The notes below the pieces were generated by a model, which was not told the origin of the DNA, made no database searches, and saw only the letters and a program-made list of their open reading frames with translations. 64,000 bases of DNA, from the NCBI RefSeq assembly GCF_037042905.1, contig NC_087245.1:4962001-5026000 (forward strand), in the 5' to 3' direction. Position 1 is the stretch's first letter; the number at the start of each line of letters is the position of its first letter. This document shows positions 1 to 63,573 of this stretch, piece by piece. A program made the position numbers and the translations under genes. This stretch comes from Lytechinus pictus (lineage: Eukaryota).

Positions 1-971
1 ATCGGCCTGTCTACCTGTTCTGTAGACATGAGTTATATCTTAGCAGAGTGTAACGCCATACCCGAATATTCAACCTAACACACGGGAGCAGGGGCGAAAC
101 AGGGGGTCTATTACCAGATTTTGATTGGTCTGTACGCCAACTCTGAACATTATTGTTGGCGAGCATTAGTGCAAAGCTCTATGCGGCAGTAGCGTAAATG
201 AGTTTGAGAATGAGGAGCAGAGTATGGCATGTGTGGCAAAAAGTTGCTTTAAATAAGTCACAGAGAGCGAAGCAAGCTAGAAAAACAACCTTTTCATGAG
301 AATCTAAATTTGAGACAGATTCTGACATGATATCCAGAAAATATCATCAATATCTTACTTTTCCTTTGCTTCTCTTTCCTCTATTTTTCAGTCTTTTTTT
401 TTTTTTTTGGGGGGGGGGGCGATGGCCCAAACCTTTCTATCTCTACGCCTATGCTATTATTTTGTGGTCCGGAAACCTCTTGTTCTAATGTCATTTTAAA
501 CCTTCATACAGATGGTCTCTATTTTTATCAATTTGCGGGTATAAAGTTTTTACAAAACACATCGATTCGACGCAGTTGCGTAATATACCAAATATTTTGC
601 TGGGGCACAACATACAAATGTGGAAAAAAATGCAAAACTTCCCATGCGAGCGAAGCAAGCCAGAAAAAAATTGGCTTTTTGAAATGAAATTCTAAATATG
701 TGATAGATGTTTCATTATATCCGGCAAATAAAAAAAAATGCTTTCCATTCATTACATTCCGTTGCCTCCTTTTATTTCACCTTGTAAGCCAGTGCTCATT
801 ATCATTAAAGTTAAGATCAATACAGGAAGGGTCCCTACAGGGGGCACATTATATAGGGTCTGGGGCAGCTTCTGTAAGGACATTTAAAGTATATTAGGGG
901 GATATGTCTAGCCGTTGGTTAACTTTTTTTTGTCCTGATTGCGCCCGGTATTATATAAAAATATAGTAAGC

Positions 972-1358
972 TTAAAGTGATTGGTTAACATTGGTTTGAC
1001 TTTTAAAAAAATCTGAGCTAGAAGGTCACACTTGTCACCTGTGTCTGTGATATGTTACAAAAATGAAGCCCAGAAAAAATTGCGTTCGAAAATAATTATT
1101 TAGTGCTTCAAATATTGAAATATAAAGTGACCGGAAACACCATCTTAATTTCATCCCATACACTTATGTGTACTATTTAGGCGTCTACAAGACGCCTATT
1201 TACAAAATCTGGGTTTGCCTTGTAGTTTTAGCTTTTCATTCTCAATAATAGTTGTTTTCAGGGTTTATTAGTTCTAATACATGCACTTGTACACATGTTT
1301 CATCTTGGTTTGAGAATTTTTTAAATCGGCTGCTCACAAAGTTAAACAATACCTTTAA
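972..1358. mobile_element. TTAA-flanked non-autonomous DNA transposon (Kolobok-like MITE)
   Basis: Left end ttaaagtgattggttaacattgg; right end reverse-complements to ttaaaggtattgtttaactttg. Imperfect TIRs with TTAA on both sides. Confidence 0.6.
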
Positions 1359-1692
1359 AGTAGACTTCAGACATAATGTTATTTGCCATCCATCATTCTT
1401 CCCGTTCTTTTTTACTACTCGGCAGCCCGGTGGTATTTTTAGTTCTTTTTTTTTATGTCCCTTTTCTTGATATTCCAATTATGGTTCATTTCATTGTACC
1501 TTCATTTCCCGCTTTGGTTTGCTACTTTTTCATCTTTTAATTTATTTCACTTTCTTACTAATCCTGCTAGTATTAGTATTTCGGAATGATTTGTTCTTTC
1601 TTTAATGACTGCTTGGTTATTTTTTAACCATCGATCTTAAAACTATTTGTGGAACTTGTAACTTTTTATATGTGGTCTAATTTTATTTATAG

Positions 1693-1818
1693 GCTGAAGA
1701 ACACCCACTTGAGTCTGTTCCTCAGGAAGAAAACTTGCCCGTAGACATGATAGATGCAACCTTCACTGAAGGCCTGGTGTATGCCATTGGTCCTTTCAAT
1801 TGTGGAGATATTGTTACA
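1693..1818 (+). CDS. Internal exon of an unknown gene (AEEHPLES...CGDIVT)
   Basis: Acceptor ttttatttatag, 126-nt open frame, donor gtaagt at 1819. Phase 0 matches the exon at 2663. Confidence 0.6.
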
Positions 1819-1849
1819 GTAAGTTTTATTTGGTATTGGCTAAACTTAC

Positions 1850-2035
1850 ACCGCTTTCAGTATACGGTCCAGACCAGCTCCGGGCCAAGTCTTTACATTT
1901 TTAGTTTATGAATGGGTGATTGTAAAAGTAGCGCCGCCTAGCTCTGCTATGTAGGTACTGAACGCTAATTGTGCGGCGAACTATTTTAATGCGAGCCTGG
2001 TGTAGACCAAAAAATACAGAGTTACTGAAAACGGT
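1850..2035. mobile_element. Small MITE-like inverted-repeat element in an intron
   Basis: accgctttcagta at 1850 pairs with tactgaaaacggt ending at 2035. Confidence 0.35.
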
Positions 2036-2662
2036 TTTAGATACGGGAAATTAATGCTAACAAGTCATGTCCTATTGTGTGTGAAAGGCGTGCCCAGGTA
2101 GGCCGACTCATAATTCAATTTTCAGCGCATTTAACTATTGTGTGAATAAAAGAAAGGCAAAAGTCAAGCTTAAAAAAGTACACACTACGTTGCCATGGAA
2201 ACCCTATATTCATGCAACATGTCATTTTCTTATGCGTAAATAAAACGTACAATATACTGTACTTGCATGAAATACTACATTTTCTCTTAATTCTATAACT
2301 GGACTTGGGTCTATCTCAATCCATTGGATTTGGAAATGAGTTGTAAAGGATCCAAATTGACTCAATTACAAGATAATAGTAAGGTAATCGATCGTTGACG
2401 AATATATTTTGCCCAAAAAATGTCCTCATTGATTCCTTATTACCGTCATATTATTTTCCTAAACACGTCAGATATAACAAACATGATTGTTTTGTTAGTA
2501 ACGAACATCAATATTATAATTTACTATCCATGCAAACTTTCACTCTCATTTGTGAAGGACGTCTTATTCAAAGTATATGCCTATAAGCCTACCGTACGCT
2601 AATCAATAAAAAAAAAACGAATAACACGATTGTTTATGGCTTACACATTTTATTTTTTTCAG

Positions 2663-3265
2663 GTGACAGTCATGAACATTCAACAAGCCTTAATCAGAGA
2701 GCTCAACATCTATACGGATTCGGCAGTTCTTTCTCCCATAATCGATGATCAACTCAGTGATGATATCCTCATTACTCTACCCTTAAATAAGGTCTCAACT
2801 TTAACGGTGAGAAATAAGGGGATGATAAGAAAAGAAGGTGCAAGAATGAAAGAGAATGCCTATAGAGCAACGTATATTCAACTTAACGGTAAGGAGTACA
2901 GGGACAGGTTTTTCAAAAACCAAAGGAAATATGCCATCCTTTCTGCAATCACCAAAACGTTCAAAGGGCGAATGTCTCAGAGGACATTTGAATTAGGGCC
3001 CATGATTCCAGGAATAGATGACATATTACTACCGTTGTTGGAAAGGTCTGTAACATATAGTTACAGAAAGTCCAACATACAAATTCTAGACCGATTCCTA
3101 GGCAACAAATGGGACACAGTTTTCTCTGGTGGGTCGACCAGATTCGTCACCTGTATAAGATTTCATGTTACAAAAGATAGTCAGCTCACTGGTATTGTAA
3201 AGGTAGGCGAATATCCAGGCACAGTTTCTTGTAGGGAAACCATAAAGAATTATATAAAAAGTTAG
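2663..3265 (+). CDS. Terminal exon of an unknown protein, possibly an accessory gene of the adjacent transposon
   Basis: Acceptor tatttttttcag at 2662, then 200 open codons (VTVMNIQQ...KNYIKS*) with globular-looking composition. No family recognised. Confidence 0.6.
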   Translation: MTVMNIQQALIRELNIYTDSAVLSPIIDDQLSDDILITLPLNKVSTLTVRNKGMIRKEGARMKENAYRATYIQLNGKEYRDRFFKNQRKYAILSAITKTFKGRMSQRTFELGPMIPGIDDILLPLLERSVTYSYRKSNIQILDRFLGNKWDTVFSGGSTRFVTCIRFHVTKDSQLTGIVKVGEYPGTVSCRETIKNYIKS

Positions 3266-5126
3266 AACAGCAAGCAATGTACATTCCTAGTGAGATTGTA
3301 ACCCATCCGAATTGTAAGCAATCATGATAACAAGCATAAAGTGTTGTAGTTACAAAAGCATGAAAGGAAATTTTTGAGGAAAAGCTAACTAGGATTTAAC
3401 GAGACCTAGGTTTTGATTTATTCAAATTCAACGTAACATTTTCATGCGTCTGTAACACTTTGGATATACTGTATATCTAACAACTTGAGGATTTTCATTA
3501 GAGATAATAAACAACACTCCGTTTGAACCAAGTTGGATTACTTCTGAAGAAAACATCCAAGCGTGATCTGAATCTGATTCTTTTTGAGCGGTTACGATGT
3601 GAAAATTTATGATGAAATAATTTTTGCAATTAGAATCAGCATTGACTTTTATCGAGCATGTAGGCCTATTGGCGCTTTGTGGTGTGAGACCAAGGGAAAA
3701 GTGAAAACATCTGGGTTTTTTTTCACAGCTACTCTTGCCATGCATGTTTCAGGTCATCATGGTCATAATAAAACTTTGTCATTCACATTTGTTAAAAGAG
3801 TTAGGGTCTACTGCAATATTCACCTTGCGAAACGCGGAGATTTCATCCAAATAAATATCATTGAAAAGAAGTTAATGAATTTTCTTTGGTTCTTGGGGGA
3901 AAACCCTTGAATAACCATCATGACCATCCTAGTAAATTAATGTTATAAAATAACATGTGGCATGTATATTGCTAATGAAATATTCATGAATACATGAGTG
4001 GAATTGGAATGTTAAAGGCTGGGGAAGTTTCACATACTTATGGCTTTCAACCCAGTAATCGGCTATCAGTAGATGAGAGGTTCAAATCTTGCTCGTTCCT
4101 AGACTTTTTTTTTTTACTTATCCAACAGATTGATCAATGCGATCTTATTTACTGGGTTGTAAGCCATAAATATTAACAATATTTTGAATGATTTTTTTAC
4201 TAAAATAATGAAAATCTGTGAAATGTCAAAACTTTGTTTCTTCATGTCCGATTTTGATCAAATCTTAAGTATTTTGTAAGTGTGATTTTCAAGTCACATT
4301 ATTTTTCATCCTGGAGTACCCGTTTATTTTTCATTTGTGTTGGTTGTCATGGTTGTTCAGATATAAAGTTGAATATTCGACTCTGATGAAAATCGCTCGT
4401 TGATCAGTCGTTAATTTGCTTGTTTTAGTTATAACAGTCATGACAGTTATAACGATTGCGTGGTATAGTCTTCCAATTTACCAAACTGCAAAAATATCGT
4501 ACCAGTTCATGCATCAATTCACAATTCTAGCTGCTCTAAATCAAGTAATAATTTCTGGTTTACATACTCGAAGGCATTATTACCGCTGCCAAGTCCCAAA
4601 TGTTGTCTGGAATCGGTTTGATTGTTAAACAAAATTGTCTAAATTTGCCCAATTTAAGTATTAGTCGTATATCGGAATAGGAATATATAGGAATACAAAT
4701 TGAATTTCGTATTGATTTTGATGTTTACGAATGTTTTTTTTTTTTTGTATTTTACTGTTTTCAAATGTGTACACCATTTTTCATTGTCTTTTATACCTAT
4801 GTCCCCTCGCCTCGATATCACAGCTTTTGTATGAAACGTCCATAGATTTATTGTATAAGTAACACTGCAATCTTATGTATTCCCTATAAATTGATCATTG
4901 TGGTGCAAAGCAAGATAGCTTTCTTTCCTTTCTAATAGCATTTTCACACGAGAGAAAAGCAAAGAGATTGAATCTTCTGTCTCTGAGTAAACCAAAATTA
5001 TCAGTTATCATGATTATTTGAGATGTGTATACAAGTTCGTTAGGTGTGCATGTAAATGTATAGCCGTTTCATGATTTACGCTTTGTTGGCTGCTTTGATT
5101 TATTTTCCTTCTTTATTTTCCTGCCT

Positions 5127-6482
5127 ATGCCAAATTATATTGAGATGCTTTATTTTAAGAATGCCCTTCTTTGTAATGAACACTACCATGGTGCTCAAAG
5201 AGCAACTTGCAGTATAGACACTCTTGCTGAGCTTTACTACTTTGGAATCTACCCACATGATGATAATGACAGTGGAGGAAATGAGCTTTTGGCTCAGCTT
5301 ATTAAACTATGTAACTTACGTGACGAATATGGTCCCAGTTGCAAAGTGCGAGAAGAGCTTTGGGATTTCCTTGTTAAAAAGATACCTAGCTTTTACCCGA
5401 AAGGAACATCTCACGCTGAAATAATGCAAGCATTTGATTATTTTCAGGATAGTTCCTGTAAGTTCATTGTACAATACACGGGACAGAGCACATGCCTTTC
5501 TTGTAAGCATTCCTCAAATGATAAAGTAGCCCTAGATCCTGTTCACTTGTTTGACCATGGAGTGAACTCCTCACATTTTGGAAATGTAGGTAAAGGATTG
5601 GAGTTTATTATGGAGAGGAATGCTGTATATAAGGGCAAAATAACAAAATGTTTGACTTGTCATAATCCAGGTATGACAGATTTCATTATAACTGAGACCA
5701 AAATGCCTAAATTCCTTCTTGTCCAGATGATTTTGGACCAAAATTCGAAAAATCGCCAAACACCACAACCTGTCATAAACGAAGAAATGATCGTTAATGG
5801 CTTCCGATATGAACTGCAAGGAGCTGTCCAGGCAACTCCGGGACATTTTTATGCAGTCGTGAAAAGGGGTGGGAACTTTCTTGTCATAGATGACATGAAA
5901 ACATGCATCAATATTTATAACTCATTTGCTGCTGCAGTTACCAGACAAAGGGTACTCAATGACAAGCGGTCATTGGTTGTCAATGATAAACATGATGGGG
6001 TACATGTTCTCCTCTTTGTCAAAAGAGATCATAGTACCTCAACTAATTCTAACAACTCAGCAAGCATGGCAAGTAGAAGTGGTGGACCATGTACCAGCCA
6101 GAAACTTGGTATGAATGTTCCTCCGCAACAAGAGGTTGAAAGATCTGATTCTAAATGGGACAATGGTCCACCGCCTGGTTTATTCAGGCAATCCCCTTTG
6201 CCACGAAAATCATGCAGTCCAGCAGTCCATCCGACAGGCTCTGAGATCGATGCTTGCGGTTCGGATTGGATCACACCCCAAAAGTGGCGAAAGAAGAGAC
6301 TTTTGTTTGGTCACAGTCCACCTAAGAGAGGAAAGTCGAGTTCACCAAAATCAAGAACACCATTAGCAGAAAAACCACTTGAAAATCACAAGTCACCCTC
6401 TAGTCATTCAGGGAAACCCCCAACTGAAGAAATATCGGACTCAAGTTCTTGTATTACCTCTTCTATATACAAAACTGTGTAA
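5127..6482 (+). CDS. USP/peptidase C19-like cysteine protease domain plus Ser/Pro-rich tail; probable N-terminal part of the transposase polyprotein
   Basis: 451-aa ORF. Cys box FKN...ATCSIDT (C28), two CxxC zinc knuckles (C123/C126, C175/C178), 'MPKFLLVQ' strand, His box YELQGAVQATPGHFYAVVK...LVIDD (H240, D255/D256). Confidence 0.7.
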   Translation: MPNYIEMLYFKNALLCNEHYHGAQRATCSIDTLAELYYFGIYPHDDNDSGGNELLAQLIKLCNLRDEYGPSCKVREELWDFLVKKIPSFYPKGTSHAEIMQAFDYFQDSSCKFIVQYTGQSTCLSCKHSSNDKVALDPVHLFDHGVNSSHFGNVGKGLEFIMERNAVYKGKITKCLTCHNPGMTDFIITETKMPKFLLVQMILDQNSKNRQTPQPVINEEMIVNGFRYELQGAVQATPGHFYAVVKRGGNFLVIDDMKTCINIYNSFAAAVTRQRVLNDKRSLVVNDKHDGVHVLLFVKRDHSTSTNSNNSASMASRSGGPCTSQKLGMNVPPQQEVERSDSKWDNGPPPGLFRQSPLPRKSCSPAVHPTGSEIDACGSDWITPQKWRKKRLLFGHSPPKRGKSSSPKSRTPLAEKPLENHKSPSSHSGKPPTEEISDSSSCITSSIYKTV

Positions 6483-9400
6483 AGATTTCACTGCTTCAGA
6501 TACCCCTCCGACCAAACACAATTCACCATTGAGTGCCAGAGATACATTTCAAGCTAAAATTGGTCCAGCCTCCACCTTTTCTAGTACTCCTCTTACAAAA
6601 TTTGTGTACGATTATTCAGGAACACCCATGACTAAATCAATTCCCTTAAGTTCAAGTACACCCATGAGTAGATCCCGATCACCCTCTAGCATGTCTAGAG
6701 CGTCAGGTTCCCCGCCACCTGAAATAGGTTCATTCTCCAATGCTTCATATTCACCAGTTAATAAGTATGTCTATGAAGATATCAACAGGTCTACAGATTG
6801 CGTCGCACCGAAAACAAAGAAGAGGCTCTTGTTCGATGATCATATTCAATTGAAGAAGAGACAAACCGATTCACTGTCCGCTAAGTTCGATTTATCCCCC
6901 ATTGGTTCAGATTATTCTTTTCAGTCACCCAAACCCGAATCGTCTTCCAGTGCTTCAGATACACCTTTGAATAATCCAAGTTTTTCCTTTGGTACTGCAA
7001 GTACATCCCTTGGCGATCATTCATCAGCCAGTGCTGATGTTACACCTAAGAATAAATCAAGTTCACCAGCCTCTGACTTTTCGTCTACAAAGAATTGTAA
7101 CACTACATGTACATCCACTGAATCAGATACATGTAATCCGTCAGATGAGACCATAGCAACTCAAAAACAATATAAAGCTGAATCTGAGAATACTGGAGAC
7201 AAATCTTTTATCAAATTAATTCGGGGTATCAATAAATATTCTAAACACTTTACAAACATTCTGGGTCATAGCATCGCATATACAATCAATGATGCAGATC
7301 TATACATTTCTTGTGATGTACTCAAAGTAGCTGGGGTATATTTGAAAGCTGGATATCGTAAAATTGACAAGCTCTTATCAGAAGAGTATACTGGCGAAAA
7401 GGCAACCTTTCTAGTTGAGTGGAAGAAGAGGACATTCATTCTAAAAGAAGCCCTCCTGATAGTATTACACAAACATCATTATGAAAAACAGAGAAAGCAA
7501 CTTGTCATAGACCATATAACAAATTTGAACCCAGGACTGGATTTTGAGAACATTCCAGATAAATGTAATGATATTGAAAGCGTCAAAGATGACACATCAA
7601 TAAAGAATGAAAATGATAACAGAAAGGAAAATTGTCATAATGGCATTCAGTGCCCATCCAATGCCCATGCTTATTTTACCTTGTTTAGTACGAAGATACC
7701 TTGCTTTTCCACAGAAAGTAACATTTACCTAGAGGTAGAACCAATATTCAAGAATGTTGCAATCCATTACCATATTAAGAAAAATAGCTGGAAATATGTG
7801 GACAAGTGTCTAACCAAACATGATATTGATGTTAAAATTGCTTTTTGTAAGAGAAGATGCCACATCAGTTTTGAAGCACTTGTTGTACTGTTGGAGAAGT
7901 TCAGACCGGGTGATGGTGAAAACAAGAAAAGAGTGGTGAAAGAACTTACACACCAGCTCTATATACTATCGCTTTTGGGATTAGATAAAAAGAAAGAAAA
8001 AATGCATTGGGCAGAGTCTTCTTTGAATGACCCCGAAACAAGGAAACATGTGCTTGATCAATTGGCAAAACAGAAATTGACGAAAGATGAGATTGACCAA
8101 GTACTTAAGACTACTCAAGCATCCAAGACTAAGTCAAAATCTTCAAATAAAATGTCTATTACAGAAAATGTGTATGAAATCTATAGATCTTCACATCCTG
8201 TTACAGAAGAGGATCTCATCTATATGAGTGATAATTATAGTGGTTCGCGGCTTCTAAACCAATTTCGGAAGAAAATCCCTGGGATACTGCCTAGTTATTC
8301 AAAAGAAAAAGAAGCAAGGCAGAATTATGTTAAAAGTTTTGGCGCTATCCTCAATCCACGTCGTACCGCTACTGGATGGTTCATTGATCCATGTCGGTTA
8401 TTAGAAATGTTGACATATAAATACCCCTTTCTCACAAGCAAATTATCTGTCAGACTTTGGGGAGACGGGAGAGAGATTGGCGGCCGCCAAAGCACATTCA
8501 TGGTTCTCTCAATTTTGAATAATGATCTTTATCTGCATGATATCTTGTTCCAAAGCCCAAATCACTTATATCCATTTACAATTTTCTATGAGAGTGATTC
8601 TCGTGATAATTTAGAAGAGAACTTATCATCTATCAACATTTGCAAATCGTTGGAAAAATTTTGTGATCCATCGAATATATATTTGTGTGGTGATGAGATG
8701 TTCTTGATAAAGATTCTAGATGGCTCTGGAATATTAAGTCCAACATCAGAAAGAGGCTGGAACCTGTATCATGCTTGCATGAAGGAAGATAAAAAAGAAG
8801 TGGCAGCGAATGGAATAAGAACGGATAGAGAAGTCAAAATCGACAGGAAGTTTCCCGAATCACTCGTACAAGTCCCTTTGAGTAATGTTGTATTTGACCC
8901 TATGCATGGTTTTACTAGGATTGTAGAAAAGCTCCTGAAATTGGAAGTAGAAAAAATTTTATTTGAAGGGAATAAAGAAGAACAGAAATCTGGATCGAGT
9001 TCAAAGAAAATTCTGATTGAAAACTTAGTGACCAATATAAACAACAGGGGTGTGCGCCAGGGAAACTTTCAGATTCATTTTGACAAAAGTGGTCGCCCCG
9101 AACAGATCTCTTTGAATAAGGATCATGCTTTAAGCATTGTAGGCATATTGAATAATGATTCCATTGTCCATGTTTTGCATAATGTTGTTCCAAAAAGAGA
9201 ACTGATATCAGCATCACATGAAATCGTAAGACCTTATTTTGACTCGCCAATTATTACAGAATTTGATGTTGCTGCCAAAATTTTTGACACTATATTTCAT
9301 ATGTATACTATTTTGAAAACAGAACCAAGTCCAGTTTTGCTGGCGGGCAGACCAAAAGGTTCATTAAAAGAGAATGATTATACTTGGGGATATGACGAGA

Positions 9401-10635
9401 CCACCAAGCTTCGTTACAAAGAACACGCAGAATGTTTCTATAAATTGGTCAACTTCCGTTACACGTGGTCAAACCTAACACCCTACATGATCAAATTCAT
9501 TGATTATGCTCCATATTTTATGAATAATTTGCCGTTTCCTATGAGCCGTTTCCAAACTGAAGGGGGAGAACATTTAAATTATATTCATAGTTCGTTTTAT
9601 TACAAGCATACTACCCGCCATGGTGGAAAGATAAAAAAAGACCCTCAATATTCATTTCTCCTTAGCATGTACCGCAGATTGCATTATGAAATTGGAAGTG
9701 AAGAATCAAGTACACATTTTCAACATTTTGTCAAGAGGCATATGGCTGCAAGTACAATTCAGGCATTCTACCGGGGATATTCTGTAAGGAAATCTTTGCA
9801 AAACGCAGGCTGGCATTCTAATCCACAGAGTGCCAGTGAAAAGACCCAAAATCGTGTAATCATGAGGGAATTTGAGTCTTGTAGGAATCCCTTGAAAGAT
9901 CTGTCCCAAAATCTACCAATTTTCCACAAGAAGCATTTTGTTTTATCAGGTAGTGTTCCTCCAGGACTTGGCCAAAGATGGACACAGGGGAGTTTGAGTG
10001 AAAAAATCGAATTGCTTGGTGGAAAGGTGCGGAAATGTCTTCCAGGAAATACTAAAGGACGATCTACCAAAATTGTGTATGTATTAGTTAATACGGATGC
10101 AATAAAAAAGAAGAAAATACCAGATATTGTGCATGAGGCTTTCTTAAAACGGCAAATCGTTCTGGATTATAGGTATATATTTGATTCTATTGAACAAAAT
10201 GCCCGTATATCATTTGAATCATATATTCCGAACTTTGCTAACTCCTTCAATGAAACCAATCAGAACAAGCCAATAAATGCCCAACATTTTGGCCATAAAT
10301 TGGGTGTTGCGTCAATTCTAAAAAAGCGAGGGAGGCCTAGAACAAGAAAAACCAGCACAGTACCAAAAACAAAGTTCCCTCGAAATGTAGTCCTGATGTA
10401 TGGCCATATTAAGAGGAAAGAGTACCTTGAAAATGTTAATGTATCCTTTTCAGATCAAGGAAGTCTTATAAAGAAATATTGCGATGAGTTTAGAAAACTT
10501 CCACTTGAACAGAAAATGCACTTTGAGAGATTGTGGAATGCCAAGAGACAAGATCACCTGGAAAGAATTGAAAAATTACAGCAAATAAAATCATACAATA
10601 AGGTGACGTCTCCATTTTACAAAGGATTACGGTAG
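6379..10635 (+). CDS. RAG1-core/Transib-like DDE transposase fused to two Bro-N-like repeats, IQ, BRCT, AT-hook and HMG-box
   Basis: 1418-codon open frame (first ATG 6628). Motifs in RAG1/Transib order: LWGDGR (D, 8464), FQSPNH, LCGDEMFL (D, 8692), VVFDPMHGFTR (8896), LTPYM...SRFQTEGGEHLN (E, 9568; compare RAG1 ITNYFH...AWASEGNESGN). Then IQAFYRGYSVR (9757), BRCT-like segment (~9919-10227), KKRGRPR (10321) and HMG-like segment (~10378-10560). Confidence 0.75.
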   Translation: MKITSHPLVIQGNPQLKKYRTQVLVLPLLYTKLCKDFTASDTPPTKHNSPLSARDTFQAKIGPASTFSSTPLTKFVYDYSGTPMTKSIPLSSSTPMSRSRSPSSMSRASGSPPPEIGSFSNASYSPVNKYVYEDINRSTDCVAPKTKKRLLFDDHIQLKKRQTDSLSAKFDLSPIGSDYSFQSPKPESSSSASDTPLNNPSFSFGTASTSLGDHSSASADVTPKNKSSSPASDFSSTKNCNTTCTSTESDTCNPSDETIATQKQYKAESENTGDKSFIKLIRGINKYSKHFTNILGHSIAYTINDADLYISCDVLKVAGVYLKAGYRKIDKLLSEEYTGEKATFLVEWKKRTFILKEALLIVLHKHHYEKQRKQLVIDHITNLNPGLDFENIPDKCNDIESVKDDTSIKNENDNRKENCHNGIQCPSNAHAYFTLFSTKIPCFSTESNIYLEVEPIFKNVAIHYHIKKNSWKYVDKCLTKHDIDVKIAFCKRRCHISFEALVVLLEKFRPGDGENKKRVVKELTHQLYILSLLGLDKKKEKMHWAESSLNDPETRKHVLDQLAKQKLTKDEIDQVLKTTQASKTKSKSSNKMSITENVYEIYRSSHPVTEEDLIYMSDNYSGSRLLNQFRKKIPGILPSYSKEKEARQNYVKSFGAILNPRRTATGWFIDPCRLLEMLTYKYPFLTSKLSVRLWGDGREIGGRQSTFMVLSILNNDLYLHDILFQSPNHLYPFTIFYESDSRDNLEENLSSINICKSLEKFCDPSNIYLCGDEMFLIKILDGSGILSPTSERGWNLYHACMKEDKKEVAANGIRTDREVKIDRKFPESLVQVPLSNVVFDPMHGFTRIVEKLLKLEVEKILFEGNKEEQKSGSSSKKILIENLVTNINNRGVRQGNFQIHFDKSGRPEQISLNKDHALSIVGILNNDSIVHVLHNVVPKRELISASHEIVRPYFDSPIITEFDVAAKIFDTIFHMYTILKTEPSPVLLAGRPKGSLKENDYTWGYDETTKLRYKEHAECFYKLVNFRYTWSNLTPYMIKFIDYAPYFMNNLPFPMSRFQTEGGEHLNYIHSSFYYKHTTRHGGKIKKDPQYSFLLSMYRRLHYEIGSEESSTHFQHFVKRHMAASTIQAFYRGYSVRKSLQNAGWHSNPQSASEKTQNRVIMREFESCRNPLKDLSQNLPIFHKKHFVLSGSVPPGLGQRWTQGSLSEKIELLGGKVRKCLPGNTKGRSTKIVYVLVNTDAIKKKKIPDIVHEAFLKRQIVLDYRYIFDSIEQNARISFESYIPNFANSFNETNQNKPINAQHFGHKLGVASILKKRGRPRTRKTSTVPKTKFPRNVVLMYGHIKRKEYLENVNVSFSDQGSLIKKYCDEFRKLPLEQKMHFERLWNAKRQDHLERIEKLQQIKSYNKVTSPFYKGLR

Positions 10636-11068
10636 TTATATTGGAACTACAGCTTGACGTGTTTCTTCTCAACAGGTAGTCACGGTGCTCAGTTGTATGA
10701 GACTGCTATTTATAATGTACATGCTCTGACTTCTCAATGATAGGTCATTTCAAATTGCAATGAATTGAGATGGTATGAAGTTAAATTTAACTTTATTCTA
10801 CAGAAAGTATTAATTTTGCTTATTAGGAAGATTAAAAGGATAAGTTGAACCTAGTATTCAATTGAAATGTGAGCAGTAATTTCTATATAGTCTATAGCCT
10901 TTAGACATATTTATATAATTCCAAAAGTATATGTTCAATACGAACATACTGAAGTGACAGTCTCTTTGTCAATCATGGTGAGTTTTCCAAAGTGTAGTGT
11001 ATACCAATGTATACACGGAGATGATATTGATAATGATTTTTTATCCTAGCCTCTTTCGCGCCCAGGCA

Positions 11069-11341
11069 ATGGTGACTGATGATTATACATTAGGCCCGGG
11101 CACTCACCAGGGTCCCCAGGGTATCAATCTTTTCGCTCGGGTCGACCAAAAGCAGCGACGTCTTGAACATGTTGAAGAGGCTATTTTGTCAAAGCTGTTC
11201 ACATTGGGAATCAGGTATCGCCTAACTTACCAAAGAAACGGCGGCCTATATTGTGTCGAGTACCCGTCTGGATTGTGCCTCATTAATGTAATACATTGTC
11301 TAGTTCCCCTTATGTTTTATTTGCAAGGGATCATAATATGA
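11069..11341 (+). CDS. Possible small unknown ORF or exon downstream of the transposase
   Basis: GC-richer open frame MVTDDYTLGPG...LQGIII* after a plausible acceptor ttttatcctag. No homology recognised. Confidence 0.3.
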   Translation: MVTDDYTLGPGTHQGPQGINLFARVDQKQRRLEHVEEAILSKLFTLGIRYRLTYQRNGGLYCVEYPSGLCLINVIHCLVPLMFYLQGIII

Positions 11342-11695
11342 ATGATATTCACATATATCAAAAGAACTTGGTTGTATTGAACTGAACTGAAATTATCATG
11401 CTATCACAATTTACGTTTCCGCTGTTTGTTGTTGGTGCTCTCTTTAAAGATAGATGGGTTCAAAAAGTTACTTTGTCCGAAATGAGGTATTATCCATCGG
11501 TTATATCATAGTTTACAACATTCTCTCACTGATGATTTTACAAGAGCAATTCATTCTCACATATACATTCGGGTACATTCAGCCCACATTTGAAGTACAT
11601 GAACGTCTGAAACAACGGCTCATATATTTTGTGACTGTGAAAATGTTTCCGCCTGTTGCAAATTTTAATTCTAATTTCATTTTGTCTAATTTCAG

Positions 11696-11995
11696 AAAAA
11701 AACTTTTGATGGTCCGGATAAGTTTATATCCTACTTATTTTATCATTGAAGCACTTCATAAGTTGTTCCAAACTTTGGACCATTTAGATCATTTGTTAAG
11801 AAGGAAAAAGAAATTGAATATTGTTTGGCAAAAAAAAGACAAAAACTCTCGGCTCATTTCAAGAATTGGGAGTTTGAATTTTATCTTTGTCATCTTATTG
11901 TCTATCCATGTATCCTGTTAACTGTGTATGAGCATACAAATACCTTCCATCAAATTTGCTGTGTATATAAAGATCATGGTTGTGTCATTGCATAA
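11696..11995 (+). pseudogene. Possible decayed coding exon
   Basis: After acceptor ctaatttcag one frame reads KTFDGPDKFISYLFYH*STS*VVPNFGPFRSFVKKEKEIEYCLAKKRQKLSAHFKNWEFEFYLCH...CVIA*. Protein-like but with two early stops. Confidence 0.25.
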
Positions 11996-12989
11996 AACTT
12001 TCCACTTTTTGTATTTTTTAATATTTATTATTTCTTTACTAATGATGTTATGATTACTTGTAAATATTGTAATTATGTTTGATTTGTTATTTTTTGTTTA
12101 TAATTGGTCTTTGTTGACCCAATACAAGATACATACAAAATAATAAATGAATGTCTCTTAAGATTGCTCAACATACGGACAAACATTGCATTTCGCAGGC
12201 TGAACTATAAATATGTTGGCATTTAAAACGTCACTCGTTTTCAAGCTTGCTCATATTTTTTTTTAATTTGTGAAACATTTTTTACATACGACCTATGCAA
12301 TTCTTACGTGCCTTTGGATTTTTTTTTTGGAAAATGTAGAAAGTTTTTTACGACATTTTTGTGACTGTGATTACCGTGGGTATAAAAATGAGTGTTGATG
12401 TGTTTAATACTTGCATTTGAGCTTTTTAGTATTAGTTCATTCATTTAAAACCATAGCATAATTAACCTTGTAATAGAAGGTGATTATCCTGTATTTAATT
12501 GTCTATAAAAACACACGAAAGAATATAGGGATGTTTTTCACGGCCGGGTGATAGACACACGTACAGTGTAACTTAAATTTGCCAAAATCTGGAAGAGCGG
12601 CATACTTTTCAAACCTGGATATGTGAAACTGTATATAGTTTACCCTACCATGGCATGCAAATAGATTATTTGAAGTTGTCTTTAGAGTAGGGACTAAAAG
12701 CAAAAAAAAAAAAATAGGGAACTCAAACTGAAACTGAATTCACAGCCCTGTGAGGGAAAGATGATTGGCCATTTTGAATGTACATGGGCGAATGATATCA
12801 CCCCCCCAAAAAAAAAAAAGATTAATTCATGATTAATGTACCTACTATCAAGTGAAAGATTTTGTCAAACACTATTGTGCAGAAAAACTGATGATATCCC
12901 GTGTATTTGTTGTTGGCAGCACTTTTGGTTTAAAACACAACAAGAAAAATATAGAGGAAAGCGCTGTACAGGGGCTTGGTTCGAAAGAA

Positions 12990-13579
12990 TTAAAGGGGAA
13001 TGAAACCTTTGGAACAAGATACCTTGTGTGTAAACAGAAAAATCAAAGAAACAGATCAATGAAAGTTTGAAAAAATCGGACAAATAATGAGAAAGTTATG
13101 AGCTTTTGAAAATTGCGATCACTAATGCTATGCAGACCATCCCATTGACAATGCGATAAAGATGTATGATGTCACTTGTGAACAACTCTCCCAATTACTT
13201 TAGTTTATTTTTCACGTAAAATGCCTCTTTATCACATCTATCAGCAGATCATGTGTTCTTTCTATAGGAGGCATGCAATACAGATTTCTAAAGAATACAT
13301 CATGGATAAAGAGTTTGTATCACCATAAGAAAAAGCAAAAAGAGACATTTTGGGGGTATTTCATAGTCCATCAAAGGGAAAGTTGTTCACATGTGACATC
13401 ACCCATCCTTGTCGTATTGCCAATGTGAGGATCTCCATGGCATTAGTGATTGCAATATTCAAATGCTCATAACTTTCTCATTATTTGTCCGATTTTTCTC
13501 AATCTTTCTTTGTTCGTATTCTTTGATTTTTCTGTCTTGACACAAACCTACTTGTTCCAAAGGTTTCATTCCCCTTTAA
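12990..13579. mobile_element. Kolobok-like MITE, family A
   Basis: TTAA-aggggaatgaaacctttggaacaag ... cttgttccaaaggtttcattcccct-TTAA. Long imperfect TIRs; same family as 29841-30431. Confidence 0.85.
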
Positions 13580-13797
13580 TGGTTTGTAGCATTATTTTAT
13601 CATTTTGTATTTACTATCTACACGTACAAGGATGTAGGCATTACGCATTTTGTTATATTTCAATATTTGCAAACCTATATTTGAAGTGTATGGAATTGTT
13701 ATTTGTAACTTTCCTTGAAACTTTAATCGCTATGGATGCAAACCATTGAGTAAATTTTTGCCTTTATGTGTGCTTAATACTCTGTAAATATTCTCGC

Positions 13798-14768
13798 AAG
13801 TGGTATACTCCAGGTTGAAAATAATATGATTTGAGCGAATAAAAAATCAGACAAACGAAACACTTAAAGGACAAGCCCACCCCAACAAAAACTTAATTTG
13901 AATAAAAAGATAAAAATTCAACAAGCATAACACTGAAAATTTCATTCCTCCCTGCATGAGCACGTGGAATTCCATTTTAACATATTATGCTTCAGGCAAG
14001 GATGTCCTAATCTTCAAATTCGTAAAAATTGAAATATTGTATAATTCAAACAATACAAAACAAAAGAAATAGTGAGTGAGTGACATCATCGACTCTCTCA
14101 TTTGGATGTAACTGGCTCGTTCATATAACTGTTTTGTTAAAAATAAGCGAAACTTTGAAATGTCATAACTTTCTTATTTTACATCAGATTTTCATGAAAT
14201 TTTCAGCATTGTGCTTGTCTGATTTTTCTCTATTGATTCAATTCAACATTTTTCTTAGGTGGACTTGACCTTTAAGATTGGATCAAAATCTTACAAGGAA
14301 TGTCGAAATTGTAATATCTGAAACAATTCTACATGTGTGCATGTGTCAATGGGTATTCAATGAACAAACTTATAATTATAATTAATCACTCACCATTTGT
14401 TATTTTATATTTCATTACATGAAATTATGTTTATCCATATTTTGTCCAAGAAGAAATAAATGGAATAACATATGATTCAATTCATTAGATATTCATAGCT
14501 GCAACTTATTTTTTATTATATTAGGGAGACATACACATATGTATGAAAGAAATCAATGTGATTTTATGTAATAACATAACAAAAAAAGGAAAGTGGCGAT
14601 GTAAAGTTATCAACCTATGTAATGGGTATTCATAAAAACGTGAATCTGACTGTATTTTTAACATTGCTATGCATTAAAATTCAATAACTTCGTTATTTGT
14701 TATAAGATTTTGATTAAATTTTCAAGTGAATTTAGATAGGATTACTTTCAGCCTGGAGTACCATTTAA
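13798..14768. mobile_element. Degenerate TTAA MITE (outer element) interrupted by a nested MITE
   Basis: Left aagtggtatactccaggttgaaa versus right tttcagcctggagtaccatttaa. Internal sequence resembles 36824-37239. Confidence 0.55.
13864..14275. mobile_element. Kolobok-like MITE nested at a TTAA site
   Basis: TTAA-aggacaagcccacc ... ggtggacttgacct-TTAA. Confidence 0.75.
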
Positions 14769-15799
14769 ACTTTTTATATGTATACATACAATATATATTT
14801 AAAAAAACGACATTGATAAACCATTTTCTTCTGACATGTATATCTCATTACTTACATAAAAAGACTTGTGATTTGTCGAACTTGCTTAATAAATCATGAG
14901 AACTCTATTTCATTGGAGCATCTTCTAGTCATTTGTTGTTAGTAGGAGTTTTAAATCAGTGTCTAGAATTCATAAAAAACTAAGAAAGGTCATCATGGTA
15001 ACTACCAAATGGCTCTTTAACTCCTCTAGTCATTCATACTCACTTCTAAGAACAATTTCTCAATTTTCTTACAATTTCATACTCTAATTTTCTTGTGTCT
15101 TTCAAGTCTCTCTGTACGATAATTTGACCCACCAACAGAACACACTGAATGAGAACATTCAAAAAGGGTGAACAGCTTTTATAGAGGATAATAAATGGCT
15201 GCGAACATACCCCTTCCCGAAAAGTCAGAAGAGAGACAGTCCGTTACATGATTAGAGGGAGTGGAAACGCATAAAATAATAGGAAATGTAAATCAGATGC
15301 ACAATAATAATATGTGAGATGTGTGGTCGATGGCTTTAGTGTAGTACCCAAAAAAAAAATCCATCCCCTTATCATTACCCAGCATATTTCACGATATGAT
15401 CCTTAATTTAAAGAAATATATAAATAAAAGGGCATGCGATGTATTTACATGAAAGGGAGAGAGGTGTAAATGACCAAAAAAAATGATAGCCCGAGTGATA
15501 GAGATAAGAACAAAGAGAGAGGGAGAGGGAGAGAGAGAGAGAGAGGGGGAGAGAGTGGGGCAGGGAGATGAACAAATCTAACTCGCACCTTCAAAATGTC
15601 TGAGTATAAGACTATTGACCCATATCAGGGTTTGCTTCGCTGCGGTTAACTAGTAGAGCAATAATGAAGTCCCCAAGGGGGTCTATGTTTACTCAGGGAT
15701 TAGCTATCCTGATAACAGTCTTGGGGTTGGAATACATCTCAATGACTCAATGTTTAAACGTGAAGTTTTCGTCATGATGACTGACAACCACCTTCCAAT

Positions 15800-16226
15800 A
15801 TGAATAGCGAAACTCTTCTACTGTTATGACTGGCGAACTCCTTCTAGTACTATTATGACTAGCGAACCTCTTTTGCTATTATGACTGGCGAAACTCTTCT
15901 ACTATTATGACTGGCGACCCTCTTCTAATATTATGACTGGCGAACCTCTTTTAATATTATGACTGGCGACCCTCTTTTACTATTATGATTGGCGAACCTC
16001 TTCTACTATTATGACTGATGGCGACCCTCTCTAGCGAACCTTATGGTTAATGAACCCCTTTCCTCCTTATGACTATAGCGACCCTCTTGTTTGATTATGA
16101 CGAGCGACCCTATTCTTTGATTATGGCTAGCGACCTCTATGAGCATAGACCCTTATAAATAGCGACCTTATGGTCATTATGACTAGCGGTCCTTATGACT
16201 AGTGGGTATAATAAATATGACTAGCG
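15800..16226 (+). repeat. 26-bp minisatellite (TATTATGACTGGCGAACCTCTTCTAC) degenerating toward the 3' end
   Basis: About 8 well-conserved head-to-tail units, then degraded ttatgactagcgacc cores. Confidence 0.85.
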
Positions 16227-16586
16227 AGTGCACCCCGGCTCCGCTCCCGTGATCAATCTATTCTTACAAGAATTTGGCCGTGACAAATCCCTACGTTTAG
16301 CTTATCATGCTTATGCACTGCATCATGGGAGTTTAGTTATAATAAGTCAATTTATGAATAAGTGATTCAAATGACTTTCATATATGATTATAACTTTTAT
16401 TATAAACGAATCAAAACATCCTTTAAATACACTTTCGTGAATATGGGAGGGGGTCATCTGGTATCTTTGTGGAAGCGGGGGAGTTTGTACAAAAATATTT
16501 TGGCCTACCGTATTCTTTAAATTAAGTGTACGATGAGTTACTGATGACATTGATCAAAATGCCGTTAATGAAACACTTATCTTTAC

Positions 16587-16604
16587 CATGGAGCTAGCTC
16601 CATG
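16587..16604. mobile_element. P-superfamily-like transposon excision footprint
   Basis: tctttac|CATGGAGCTAGCTCCATG|tctttac: 18-bp palindrome with a 7-bp direct repeat. Confidence 0.6.
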
Positions 16605-17319
16605 TCTTTACCATTTTATCTATTATTTTGTAGGGGACTTAAATCACATTGATTAATACAACAATGCAATAAATATCTAAAAAAAACTTTTTATATGCAT
16701 CATTGTAATATTTCCATGTTTTGGAAGTTTATATTGTGGCCTGTGATGGCCTATATGATCATAATTCATAAGGCACCCTTATTCCCGATAATCAAGATCC
16801 TATTTTTGTTTTCATTCTCATCTCACCTTCAACCAGCAGTGAGCATATGAGTTTTCATTGAACAAAACTCGACTATTTAATCTCTATTTGCTCTTTTGTG
16901 TATAATTCTTGTTCATATTTTCTACTAGTTTATATTATTACCCTTATCCCTTAATATACCCTTATCATCCACTGTAATTAACGCATATTAATTCTAAACG
17001 AATGATACGAATCAACATTTTAAAACTCGCTAACTACGCTCACCGCCGCAATTTCGGTCGTAATTACAGGCTCCCTTGAAAGACGATTTGGTAATGATCA
17101 TTCTGTCTTCTAACTATGGAAAATTTGCTAAATCATCTCTACTGTAATCCAGCTAGTATAGCTTAATTACGTCACAACAAATCAATTACAATAATGATAG
17201 CCATCGAAAAAACCCATCGCAGGTATGTACCCCTGTAGCTTGTGAAGTGATAATTACACGTCACTTGAAAGAGGTAAAATTTTAGGGCAACATTCTTTTT
17301 TTTCATCTACTGAAAATTT

Positions 17320-18600
17320 ACTCGCTCGCCGCGACGCTCGCTCGCATATTGATATTAACTACAATTAATTACTTTATAGCCATTTTAAAAATTGCCATAG
17401 GCCTTTAACTGAAAGATGGTAGTATGATGTACATGGTCATATACCCCGCCCTTGGTGTGGGGGTGCCCCCCCCCCCAAATTTTGAATTTTCAGGTCATAT
17501 TACTATCATCCCCCTCGGACCAAGATTTACGCCAGTGCTATATATCAATCAAAATTCAGCGCTTTGCATTTACATTAGATACGCATCCTGTTCATGGTTA
17601 TATACAATTAAAAGGTGCTTAGAATCTCGGTTAGAATATCCCATTTTAGGTCTAAATCGCCAAAAAAAAATCATCTCGCATTTCGTATTCGCATGCATGG
17701 AGCTATATAGCATCCATACGTGTTCCTTCATGTTAAACGCTGTTTAACATGTACCCTACTTTGGGATAGTATTTTTTTTAAATCCAGCTCGCATCAATTC
17801 TTTATTGAAATACACAGCCTGTTCTTTGTTTCAAAATGTGCTTAAAAAGTATAGTACAGACTCGAATGTAATAGGTCCTAAATTTCCAGCTCTCGTCATC
17901 AGATCTATTTCGGCATCTTAGGAAAATGGCTAGCGCACATAATTTCATGATTAAAACACTCAACAAAAGTGAATCCTGTTTTCAGGTATAATCTCAAAAG
18001 TTTTTCAACTCACGAAGTTGGTGCTCGCATTATCTTCCTCGCTGCAAACAGTTATAAAAGGTCTCTTTTCACGGTCAATAGGCCTATATCAAAAATTTCA
18101 TCTCGTGCTCACACATCTTGATACATTCTTTACTCATCCAGTGACAATGGTCAATTTTTAAGTCTGAATAAATAATAATAATAAAAAGATGAGCTCGTGA
18201 ACACTTTGCGCTCGCATTATTTTTTTTTCAGAATAAAGCTAAGATGTACTTGAAGCTTCGCGCTTGTATTATGATTGATTATATGTATTTCCTTATCATA
18301 TTCTTAAAAAGATCCCTTTTCATGTCATATAAAAAATTTCAGCTCGCGCTCCCATTATTGTTTTCATTTGACCATGATTAAGAAATTTTCTCATATAATG
18401 TTCTATTTTCAGATCTGAATTCATGAAATATCCAAAAATTTGAGCTCGCGCTCGCATTATTCATTTTTTTCCTGTTTCTGTACGATAACACAAACTTATC
18501 GCAAAGCTAAACAAAGGTGAATTTTCACTTCAAATCCCCCGGCGTATCGGATGGGCTCGTCGTTTGTGCCCCCTGATCCCCCCCCCCCCCCCCCACCGAT
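17320..18600. repeat. Degenerate interspersed repeat with recurring gctcgc(gc)tcgcatt motifs
   Basis: Many spaced copies of (a)gctcgc...gcatt and poly-C tracts. Confidence 0.5.
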
Positions 18601-19450
18601 AAAAAAAAAAACGAGAAAAAAATAATGAAAAGGAAATGGCTAAAATCTGAAATATGATATTATTTTCTGGATATTAGATCTATATCAAAATCCATAATTC
18701 TATGCCAAAATTGATCTGCTCTGCATATCCATCTGTGGCTGTGCTATAGTCATGGGCCAGTGGGCTGTGTGTGTTTCTGTGGGTACCCGGTACCGATACC
18801 GGTACCTAACCTTGTCTGACTGACAAACTCGCATATCCGATCGGATCACGGAACGCAGCAGCTGCATACCGAATATGCATGCATTGTCCCATGTATTGGA
18901 TATCATCGAGGGATGGAGAATTGTCGAACGAGATAGGAACATTGACAATTTGACATTGTTGAAAATCAATACAATACTCATAGCTAAAGTCTGTAAAGTG
19001 TAAGTCTACTTTTTTGTTATGGTTATATGATATAATTTATAACAGCCAATGAATTCTTATTTCATGCTTTTGTATGGACTTTGATGGTATGATTCTGCAG
19101 ATTCGTAGCTTAACCATTACCAGCGTTAGACAATTACAAATATCGATATTATCGGTACATGCAACTTTTATGCACGCATGTCCAATGCATTTTTCACAAT
19201 ATTCGAATTCCACAGGGGCCGAATCACGGATGTAGCATATTGGTTGTGCCAGGCAAAATGTATTATTTTTTAAAACTTATTTCGAGAGCTACTTTCACAA
19301 CCTAATTCCTCAACAAACGTTAAGTTACTTAGTCTTAGAAATCTAGTAATGGTCAGTTCCCCCATGTACGTCTGCGCGGTCTCCCAAGTCTGGACACCCG
19401 CGTATCTGCGCGATTCTAGTAAAAATAAAAAAAGAAGATACGCAACTAAG

Positions 19451-19579
19451 TTACCTCGAGCGAAGTTCGTGCAGGCTCCACTTCACTACCGCTACACTAC
19501 ACTCCACCTACCCGAAGGTGGAGCGTAGTGTAGCGGTAGTGAAGTGGAGTGGAGCCTGCACGAACTTCGCTCGAGGTAA
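19451..19579. mobile_element. ~130-bp near-perfect palindromic MITE
   Basis: ttacctcgagcgaagttcgtgcaggctccac ... gtggagcctgcacgaacttcgctcgaggtaa. A related right arm occurs at 54229-54269. Confidence 0.75.
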
Positions 19580-62849: not shown

Positions 62850-63573
62850 GTAAATTGACGCCTTCAGCCTGTGCTACAATTGTTATGCGTATGAAAGTAC
62901 GAATAAAAAAATAAATAAATAATTGTCGCATTATCAGAGCAATTTACGGCGGAGCAGATGTCGGCGGAGCAATTATCGGCGGAGCAATTGTCGTATAATC
63001 GGAGCAGATGTCGGCGGAGCAATTATCGGCGGAGCAATTGTCGGCGGAGCAATTTTCGGCGGAGCAGATGTCGGCGGAGCAAATATCGGCGGAGCAAATA
63101 TCGGCGGAGCAAGTGTCGACGGAGCACATATCGGCGGAGCAAGTGTCGACGGAGCAACTGTCGGCGGAGCAACTGTCCGGAGCAATTGTCGGCGGAGCAG
63201 TTGTCGTATTTTGCGTAGCAATTGTCGGCGGAGCAAATGTCGGCGGAGCAATTGTCATGGAACCAAAAAAGGGGGAAAAAAGAAGAAGAAAAAAAAAGAT
63301 TTTCTTCATTTTCACATTTTTTGATACACTTATGATGAGAACTCAACCCCATAAAAGTTCGCTTTGGAATGCCTGCCTTTTCTAGAAATTTCATGTTTAG
63401 TGTTGATTTTAGGGATTTATCGGGTACCCTATGTATACGGCTAATTTGATTGATGATAAATAGCTTACGGATAAAAAAAAATGTTTGTGATCTTACAATT
63501 CACAGGTTAGGTTCTAATCGTGTTAATGCATCTTAAAATAAAGAAAAAATTTGAATTTTCAAAGGAGAACACC

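Follow-up and report, generated by a model that had tools for sequence, protein, structure and literature searches.

RAG1 is the textbook example of a transposase that became a host enzyme, and to our knowledge its only kin are the Transib transposases and the RAG-like elements. RAG1 carries a ubiquitin ligase at its N-terminus and relies on host HMGB1 for DNA bending, and Transib elements are recognised by CAC... termini and target duplications of 5 bp. The gene analysed here lies on the forward strand of a stretch of 64,000 nucleotides (nt) of the Lytechinus pictus genome (assembly GCF_037042905.1, NC_087245.1, positions 4,962,001 to 5,026,000), referred to as the window. A preliminary description made from the DNA letters had presented this gene as a RAG1/Transib-like transposase core joined to a USP-like protease, an IQ motif, a BRCT domain and an HMG box, and this arrangement holds at the level of the fold. 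The protein encoded by this gene is probably the transposase of a lineage of DNA transposons, with a core that has the same whole-chain fold as RAG1 and Transib. It belongs to a large unnamed family of echinoderms and hemichordates. We read it as an undescribed, zinc-less lineage of RAG1/Transib-fold transposases with new accessory domains.

The identity of this protein to the RAG1 core and to the invertebrate RAG1-like proteins (mouse and zebrafish RAG1, amphioxus BbRAGL 6b40, and sea-urchin RAG1L) is approximately 10%. With respect to RAG1, the ZnH2 histidines are replaced by I/M and Y, the C-x-x-C motif has become C/D-x-x-H, and the RING/zinc-finger N-terminus is absent, its place in the architecture being taken by USP, R repeat, IQ, BRCT, and HMG modules. 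The Transib transposase of Helicoverpa zea (HzTransib, 6pqx/6pqn) has about 500 amino acids and no accessory domains, whereas the present protein has about 1,800 and lacks the zinc ligands. An RNase H-like DDE core that contains an inserted domain is likewise found in the Drosophila P element transposase (6pe2/6p5a) and in the hAT transposase Hermes. Kojima 2025 (PMC12730594) unites EnSpm/CACTA, Mirage, Chapaev, Transib, Plavaka, ESTA, as well as Lanisha in a CMCT clade that is defined by two motifs, C(2)C and H(3-4)H, and reports that the ESTA transposases, which are not Transib, match RAG1 in HHpred. For this reason, a match to the RAG1 fold is by itself no proof of an affinity to Transib. 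Both the CMCT transposases and the present family are DDE transposases related to RAG1 in which a long insert separates the second Asp from the Glu, but the zinc signature of the former, C(2)C with H(3-4)H, is missing here.

Intact canonical RAG1-like open reading frames (ORFs) of 612 and 624 amino acids are found in the same genome at C182:16498-18156 (L030), C233:18651-20309 (L031), and C4:15674907-15676589 (L032), and therefore RAG1-like genes and the new family coexist. The ORFs on C182 and C233 score identically and may be haplotigs. One ORF located elsewhere in the assembly is 100% identical to a protein that NCBI lists for Lytechinus pictus, in keeping with an origin of the window from this sea urchin. 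In a literature search that had Repbase and Dfam outside its scope, no transposase combining USP, BRCT, and HMG domains and no zinc-less RAG1-like family was found. The accessible part of bioRxiv 2021.09.26.461848 contains nothing on such a family, and the 2026 Drosophila 'Nozomi' preprint concerns an ordinary Transib.

Predicted fold and putative catalytic residues of the central core

The structure of the core was predicted with AlphaFold2 from 39 aligned sequences, with a predicted local distance difference test (pLDDT) of 87.9 and a predicted template modelling score (pTM) of 0.85. When this model was compared with known structures by Foldseek, the best matches were RAG1 chains (E 7e-9), followed by HzTransib (7e-8) and then BbRAGL, with the P element far lower (2.3e-4). 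An independent VIA search against 48,161 entries gave BbRAGL a score of 19.2, compared with 12.1 for the P element, 8.0 for ISCth4, 7.8 for Hermes, and 6.1 for the best unrelated fold. The match extends over the whole core, with the dimerisation/DNA-binding region, the pre-RNase H region, the RNase H domain with its inserted helical domain, and the C-terminal domain. The structure comparison proposed in the preliminary description thus points to an RNase H-type DDE core. In a language-model search of the ESM Atlas, unnamed cnidarian clusters come first. They are followed, at values of 0.92-0.95, by clusters with RAG1_RNase_H, a single DUF1280 cluster, and clusters of vertebrate RAG1.

All the motifs that had been pointed out in the core (GDG, GDE, DPMH, TPY, and EGGE) are present, and the acidic residues D141, D217, E506, and E509 of the model are invariant in the 39 sequences. 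In the numbering of the second reading frame of the gene, orfB, these correspond to D700, D776, E1065, and E1068, and C/D285 and H288 of the model correspond to D844 and H847; the residues that the preliminary description had named as D696, D772, and E1064 are the right ones, with numbers that are 4 too low. In the model, D141 lies on the first strand (136-145), D217 comes right after the fourth strand (212-216), and E506 and E509 are found on a helix (506-522) that follows the inserted domain. The three acidic residues are at the places of D600, D708, and E962 of RAG1, where the pairing of D217 with D708 is suggested by the topology of the model. The second Asp comes 76 residues after the first, compared with 108 in RAG1.

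The link to RAG1 at the sequence level was evaluated with an alignment of 22 RAG1-like proteins, seeded by an intact RAG1-like ORF from the same genome. Comparison of the family with this alignment by hhalign gave an E-value of 0.003, which becomes 0.0014, with a score of 37.4, when restricted to the columns of the core. The same comparison gave 13.7 with a reversed alignment, at most 22.4 in 40 shuffles of columns, and at most 26.8 in 40 shuffles of blocks of 15 columns. The alignment pairs TPYM-x-KFIDY with PNYLHK-x-IEH, and EGGEH-x-N with GEGNE-x-x-NK. Positions in mouse RAG1 were obtained by aligning the urchin RAG1-like protein to chain 6xnx_A and adding 258 to the chain positions. In this manner, D141 is paired with D600 and E509 with E962, C/D285-x-x-H288 falls at C727/C730, and I/M483 and Y488 fall at the ZnH2 histidines H937/H942. 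A pairing of DPMH with the DATH motif of the RAG1-like proteins, made by eye, was abandoned in favour of the pairing with C727/C730 that is obtained from hhalign and topology. A search of orfB against the sequences of known structures by phmmer retrieved green fluorescent protein alone, a spurious match.

Comparison of the family with six intact CMC-type transposases of this genome by hhalign gave a local score of 20.7 and E-values of 0.24-0.27, which are at the level of noise. The family thus appears, from the alignment scores, nearer to the RAG1-like proteins than CMC is. Since the comparison of RAG1-like proteins with CMC is equally blank, this test has little power and does not speak against an affinity to CMC. 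We know of no CMC structure that would allow a comparison of folds. By sequence, the family is not a member of RAG1/Transib, whereas by its predicted structure it is, and we file it as a lineage with the RAG1/Transib fold that is placed outside the sequence-defined families, and not as a Transib.

As a separate observation, the CMC-type (Transposase_21) ORFs of this genome include near-identical, intact pairs of 914 and of 841/849 amino acids on different contigs (C14:1492420-1492782, L045, and C13:28965433-28965795, L047; L050 and L051). They show clear D...D...C(2)C...D(2)H...H(3)H...E motifs and look like recently active Chapaev/EnSpm-like elements.

Accessory domains and reading frames

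The N-terminal domain was modelled by AlphaFold from 25 aligned sequences (pLDDT 90.3, pTM 0.88), and a Foldseek search with this model returned 453 chains at E<=1e-3, all of them USP enzymes, with USP18 at the top (7.5e-13) followed by USP46, USPL1, and USP14. The domain has the fold of the USP deubiquitinases and ubiquitin-like protein proteases (USP18, USP46/12, USP14, USPL1), together with the Cys box, the His box, and the putative catalytic Cys, His, and Asp, which bears out the USP-type boxes that had been noticed in the sequence. At least 90% of the 25 sequences retain C28 and D255, and H240 is invariant among them. C123, C126, and C178 are also conserved and are read as part of a putative USP zinc ribbon. 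Nonetheless, no Pfam match to UCH is found in the window copy, where no family is reached at E<=1, and in the relatives there are weak matches to UCH_1 (E 0.0035) and Peptidase_C98 (E 0.0097), in two of 25 and both below the cut-off. The domain is likely to be an active isopeptidase that acts on ubiquitin or on a ubiquitin-like protein.

Proteases of protein modifiers that travel with mobile elements are exemplified by ULP1 in plant MULE and CACTA elements and by OTU in Helitrons and Polintons. These have different folds and are usually encoded by separate genes, whereas here a USP fold is found within the polypeptide of the transposase; no description of a fusion of USP and transposase was found in the literature search. 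It was also observed that the relative P0039, from the hemichordate Glandiceps talaboti, has a ubiquitin-family domain at residues 164-238 (35.7 bits, above the cut-off) immediately upstream of its USP-like domain, and thus holds a protease and a possible substrate-like module in one chain.

Downstream of the USP domain comes a linker of 357 residues, of which 21% are Ser and 10% are Pro, in agreement with the preliminary description, and with no Pfam match. The two repeats between this linker and the core, R1 and R2, are indeed related (direct BLASTP E 0.002), although the unit has a length of approximately 100-120 amino acids and not of about 90 as had been proposed. An iterated profile started from R1 matches the window protein at 8.7e-45 for R1 and 1.9e-19 for R2. 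Among 204 proteins searched, this profile matched 54, and at least two copies are found in 29 of these; the number of copies in relatives is 2-4 (three in P0013 and four in P0040). The repeats gave no Pfam match and no usable match in the ESM Atlas. Given that they lie directly upstream of the core, they are suspected to bind DNA, which is a guess.

The IQ motif, which in the window copy reaches 19.7 bits against a cut-off of 20.3, follows a family consensus IQxxxRGxxxR and is above the cut-off in three relatives (P0005, P0018, and P0098). Likewise, the BRCT-like segment is below the cut-off in the window copy (E 0.016 and 0.036, 15.9 and 14.8 bits), while 11 of 25 relatives exceed the BRCT_2 cut-off of 27.3 bits, and a BRCT match could be detected in 15 of the 25 relatives of one scan and in 15 of the 21 of another. 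The family profile matches in the PDB the BRCT domain of yeast DNA ligase IV best (E 1.6e-3), followed by REV1, RFC1, and PARP4, and the presence of a single BRCT domain is thus supported for the family. Because the more distant, short members also have BRCT, the core and this domain look like an old unit. The basic motif KRGRPR is present in the window copy, but it is specific to this copy and not a feature of the family, as a GRP motif is absent from the C-terminal tail of every relative that has a tail. The final segment of about 80 residues, which had been called HMG-like, matches HMG boxes by the family profile, with NHP6A first (E 7e-4), followed by ABF2, TFAM, and HMGB1/2. The Pfam HMG matches are all below the cut-off and occur in P0039, P0100, P0104, and the window copy (HMG_WDHD1, E 0.046).

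The nearly continuous coding of 5.5 kb that had been described consists of two overlapping stop-free frames on the forward strand, orfA (5064..6482, first Met at 5127) and orfB (6367..10635, stop at 10633-10635), which share 116 nt. Apart from the break at 6480, no stops or frame breaks are found across the 5.5 kb, and the gene is largely intact, with about 1,800 codons. By local BLASTP, 26 of the 43 relatives that were found with the central part also align to the N-terminal frame, and P0001 (1712 amino acids) and P0002 (1722 amino acids) each span both frames in order. Since single relatives span both frames, orfA and orfB represent one protein, and the order of the domains is a trait of the family. 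The DNA around the gene is AT-rich (35-39% GC), and no second copy of the gene is found within the window.

The break occurs at the identical place in a 92-94% identical copy that lies elsewhere in this genome, on contig C10, and therefore it is not a slip of the assembly. The explanations that remain are an intron of 106 nt, a +1 frameshift at the stop codon or else a pair of distinct products, and an old mutation. Removal of the candidate intron (6479-6584) yields one open frame of 1,800 codons, and the gene would contain at most this one short intron. An old mutation is unlikely because the C10 copy has decayed, with three in-frame stops and six frame-breaking indels over 863 comparable codons, while the window copy has no stops. 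Between these two copies, the ratio of nonsynonymous to synonymous substitution rates (dN/dS) is 0.43, with a dS of 0.11, and the reading frame of the window copy is under constraint. Three RNA runs, of which approximately 6% each was sampled, gave 4, 0, and 7 reads at 95-99% likeness, and are uninformative on expression and splicing.

Table 1. Features of the gene, with positions in the window
Feature	Position	Strand	Evidence or remark
Whole gene	5127..10635	+	Two overlapping frames; both align to P0001 and P0002
USP-fold cysteine protease domain, residues 1-303	5127..6035	+	AlphaFold model, Foldseek, conservation
Putative triad C28, H240, D255	5208-5210, 5844-5846, 5889-5891	+	Conservation in 25 aligned sequences
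Ser/Pro/Thr-rich linker, poorly conserved, holds the frame junction	6036..7212	+	Composition; patchy alignment to relatives
Frame junction	6479..6584	+	orfA stop TAA at 6480-6482; candidate 106-nt intron GTAAAG...TTTTCTAG
Repeat R1, orfB 283-405	7213..7581	+	BLASTP, iterated profile
Repeat R2, orfB 416-559, homologous to R1	7612..8043	+	R1 profile matches 433-529 at 1.9e-19
RAG1/Transib-fold DDE core (model), orfB 560-1125	8044..9741	+	AlphaFold2 model, Foldseek, VIA, hhalign
D700 (GDG)	8464-8466	+	First acidic residue
D776 (GDE)	8692-8694	+	Second acidic residue
D844-x-x-H847 (DPMH)	8896-8907	+	Corresponds to RAG1 C727/C730
TPYMIKFIDY	9478-9507	+	Corresponds to RAG1 H937/H942; without His
E1065/E1068 (EGGE)	9559-9570	+	E1068 aligns to RAG1 E962
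IQ motif (IQAFYRGYSVRK)	9739..9798	+	Pfam IQ E 6.6e-4, 19.7 bits (cut-off 20.3)
Single BRCT domain, orfB 1184-1286	9916..10224	+	Family-level Pfam and PDB profile
KRGRPR, AT-hook-like basic motif	10324..10341	+	This copy only
HMG-box-like C-terminal domain	10363..10590	+	Family profile against PDB sequences

Copies, mobility and alternative explanations

When 5.8 billion proteins were searched with the central part, 43 relatives were found at E<=1e-3, the best being 56-57% identical. A profile search of 1.84 billion representatives found 636 clusters (at 50% identity) at E<=1e-3, of which 183 reach 1e-30. The 150 matches listed are all members of the family, with no bridge to Transib among them; the profile has 872 positions and includes the C-terminus. 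The named members belong to a sea cucumber (Holothuria leucospilota, with 10 separate named proteins), to the crinoid Anneissia japonica, and to the acorn worm Glandiceps talaboti, and one cluster at 90% identity has 11 members of differing lengths on at least eight large contigs. In the databases, the relatives are called 'hypothetical', 'uncharacterized', or 'BRCT domain-containing'.

In the genome of L. pictus there are three decayed loci, on contigs C10, C11, and C16, with 48-94% identity to the window copy. The C10 copy (G000:C10:31443540-31446850, L027 1548-4850) covers positions 5550-6863 and 8230-9663 of the window in rearranged form, the C11 locus covers orfB 493-1109, and C16 holds fragments of orfB 608-969. 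These copies stop short of the ends of the element, and with one full copy only, the ends are unmappable by comparison. In the C10 copy, window positions 6864-8229 are deleted, and pieces of 8605-9126 are duplicated and reordered. The C10-type rearrangement is also contained in X1, a low-coverage run that is DNA-like in appearance, where the joint from 9120 back to 8230 is found in one contig.

Several findings weigh against the reading of this gene as the RAG1/Transib-fold transposase of a mobile lineage. The window copy is the sole intact copy in 812 Mb, and within several kb of the gene the scans revealed neither convincing inverted termini nor convincing duplications of a target site. The scans covered repeats in 3500-12500, inverted repeats with exact seeds between 1-5126 and 10636-20000, and terminal inverted repeats of 16 nt with a duplication of 3-9 bp; the last gave 23 hits at chance level, the best with 13 of 16 matches and a 4-bp duplication and none starting with CAC, and the Transib hallmarks (CAC termini and 5-bp duplications) were not found in these scans of the flanks. 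Beside the gene, no long ORF with a Pfam match is found; the RAG2 model PF03089 matched nothing genome-wide, so that this search has no power. The break at 6480, which is common to the C10 copy, would mean, if it were a mutation, that no full-length protein is made. Regarding the sequence, none of 47 proteins matches the Pfam RAG1 family (E<=1 for the window protein, E<=0.01 for 25 of the relatives, and E<=0.1 for the other 21), and the core matches no Pfam family at all in the window protein at E<=1 or in the 46 relatives. A genome-wide search with the RAG1 model PF12940 found 19 other places and not this gene, and no RAG1 or Transib chain is among the 58 rows at E<=10 that the family profile retrieved from the PDB sequences. 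The CMCT signature of C(2)C with H(3-4)H is not found in the family, and the hhalign match to RAG1-like proteins has a probability of 10-18% and is misregistered around the second Asp. Regarding the structure, the training of AlphaFold included RAG1 structures, and the model of the core could lean towards RAG1; the positions of D, D, and E were checked at the level of topology and of the alignment to RAG1; and the fold comparison covered superfamilies with a solved structure, which leaves CMC, Kolobok, and others outside it.

The single intact copy and the missing termini would also be expected of a domesticated host gene, that is, an immobilised former transposase kept for programmed DNA cleavage or for chromatin or repair signalling, in which BRCT, HMG, and USP serve the host. 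The purifying selection on the frame, which stands intact beside a paralogue with stops and indels, is in line with this explanation as well. Nonetheless, no named sea-urchin orthologue is found among 73 hits, and a best relative at 56-57% identity is odd for a conserved host gene. Moreover, decayed paralogues occur in the same genome, the relatives elsewhere are multi-copy and dispersed, and the structure of the gene is intron-poor and transposon-like. Domestication is for these reasons considered unlikely.

A somewhat less probable alternative is that the family belongs to another DDE superfamily (Chapaev/EnSpm/Mirage, Kolobok, or an unnamed one), and that its match to RAG1 arises from the fact that, within a broad class of folds, structures have been solved for RAG1 and Transib alone. 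The C/D-x-x-H motif after the fifth strand is typical of hAT, P, MULE, and Kolobok, the CMCT zinc signature is missing, and there is no Pfam match to RAG1; the match of ESTA to RAG1 described above points in the same direction. The preliminary description was too strong in stating that the order of the core motifs marks RAG1 and Transib, given that the protein fails the Pfam model of RAG1 and lacks the zinc signature. Against this alternative stand the ranking of the fold matches and the hhalign score above all shuffled controls.

That the gene is a dead relic, a young pseudogene of an extinct element inactivated by the break at 6480, is improbable: the break exists and is common to the C10 copy, and the other three loci are clearly decayed, but the downstream frame of 1,422 codons has zero stops where about five would be expected at the C10 rate (3 per 863 codons) for a break that predates the C10 duplication (dS 0.11), and the 106-nt intron restores one frame.

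The gene is therefore likely to be the transposase of a low-copy element that is possibly no longer mobile in this genome, and the window copy may be the last one still active or may have been immobilised recently. In a bolder and tentative version, which we hold to be possible although not favoured, the family would form, next to Transib and the RAG-like elements, a third deep lineage with the RAG1/Transib fold. This branch would have lost the zinc site and become an 'all-in-one' transposase with its own DNA-bending HMG box instead of host HMGB1, a BRCT domain that hooks it to end joining, and a deubiquitinase, and it would still be mobile in some echinoderms and hemichordates.

Possible mechanism and other observations

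In the mechanism proposed for a transposase of this type, D700, D776, and E1068 on the RNase H-like fold would bind metal ions and cut the DNA at the ends of the element, presumably by the route of nick followed by hairpin as in RAG1 and Transib. The fused HMG box would bend the DNA of the ends in cis, and the recognition of subterminal DNA may fall to the two R repeats. The single BRCT domain could dock on phosphoproteins or on DNA ends of the end-joining machinery that seals the gap in the donor, while the USP-fold protease would act on chromatin or on the transposase itself, stripping off ubiquitin or a ubiquitin-like modifier.

A further large lineage that has the same whole-chain fold but no zinc site would enlarge the tree that gave rise to RAG1, and this lineage shares deuterostome genomes with RAG-like genes. 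The family would represent a natural experiment on which features of RAG1 are essential: the fused HMG box bears on the need of RAG for HMGB1, the fused BRCT domain on the handing of broken ends to repair, and the USP domain may be a counterpart to the N-terminal ubiquitin ligase of RAG1. A self-sufficient transposase could also be of interest to those who build tools for genome engineering.

Approximately 1 kb upstream of the gene, a 25-nt inverted repeat (4034-4058 and 4149-4173, 92% complementary, with arms 90 nt apart) is found, which may be a small hairpin or a remnant similar to a miniature inverted-repeat transposable element. A contig of run X1 diverges from the window at 4171.

The window also contains tandem repeats. 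An array with a unit of approximately 131 nt is found at 56174-57699 (8.7 copies, 88% matches, and also periods of 262, 120, and 236 nt), and its unit holds short palindromic CCCATATGGG motifs. Repeats of 15 nt are found at 59337-59752 (about 26 copies) and at 62937-63256 (about 21 copies), and since their units are reverse complements of each other, the two arrays form an inverted pair approximately 3.2 kb apart. The first of these lies within an ORF (59218-59784) that has a weak Extensin-like Pfam match, of 27 bits against a cut-off of 105. Tandem repeats with periods of 26, 198, and 161 nt are present at 15799-16017, 39924-40326, and 47690-48142, respectively.

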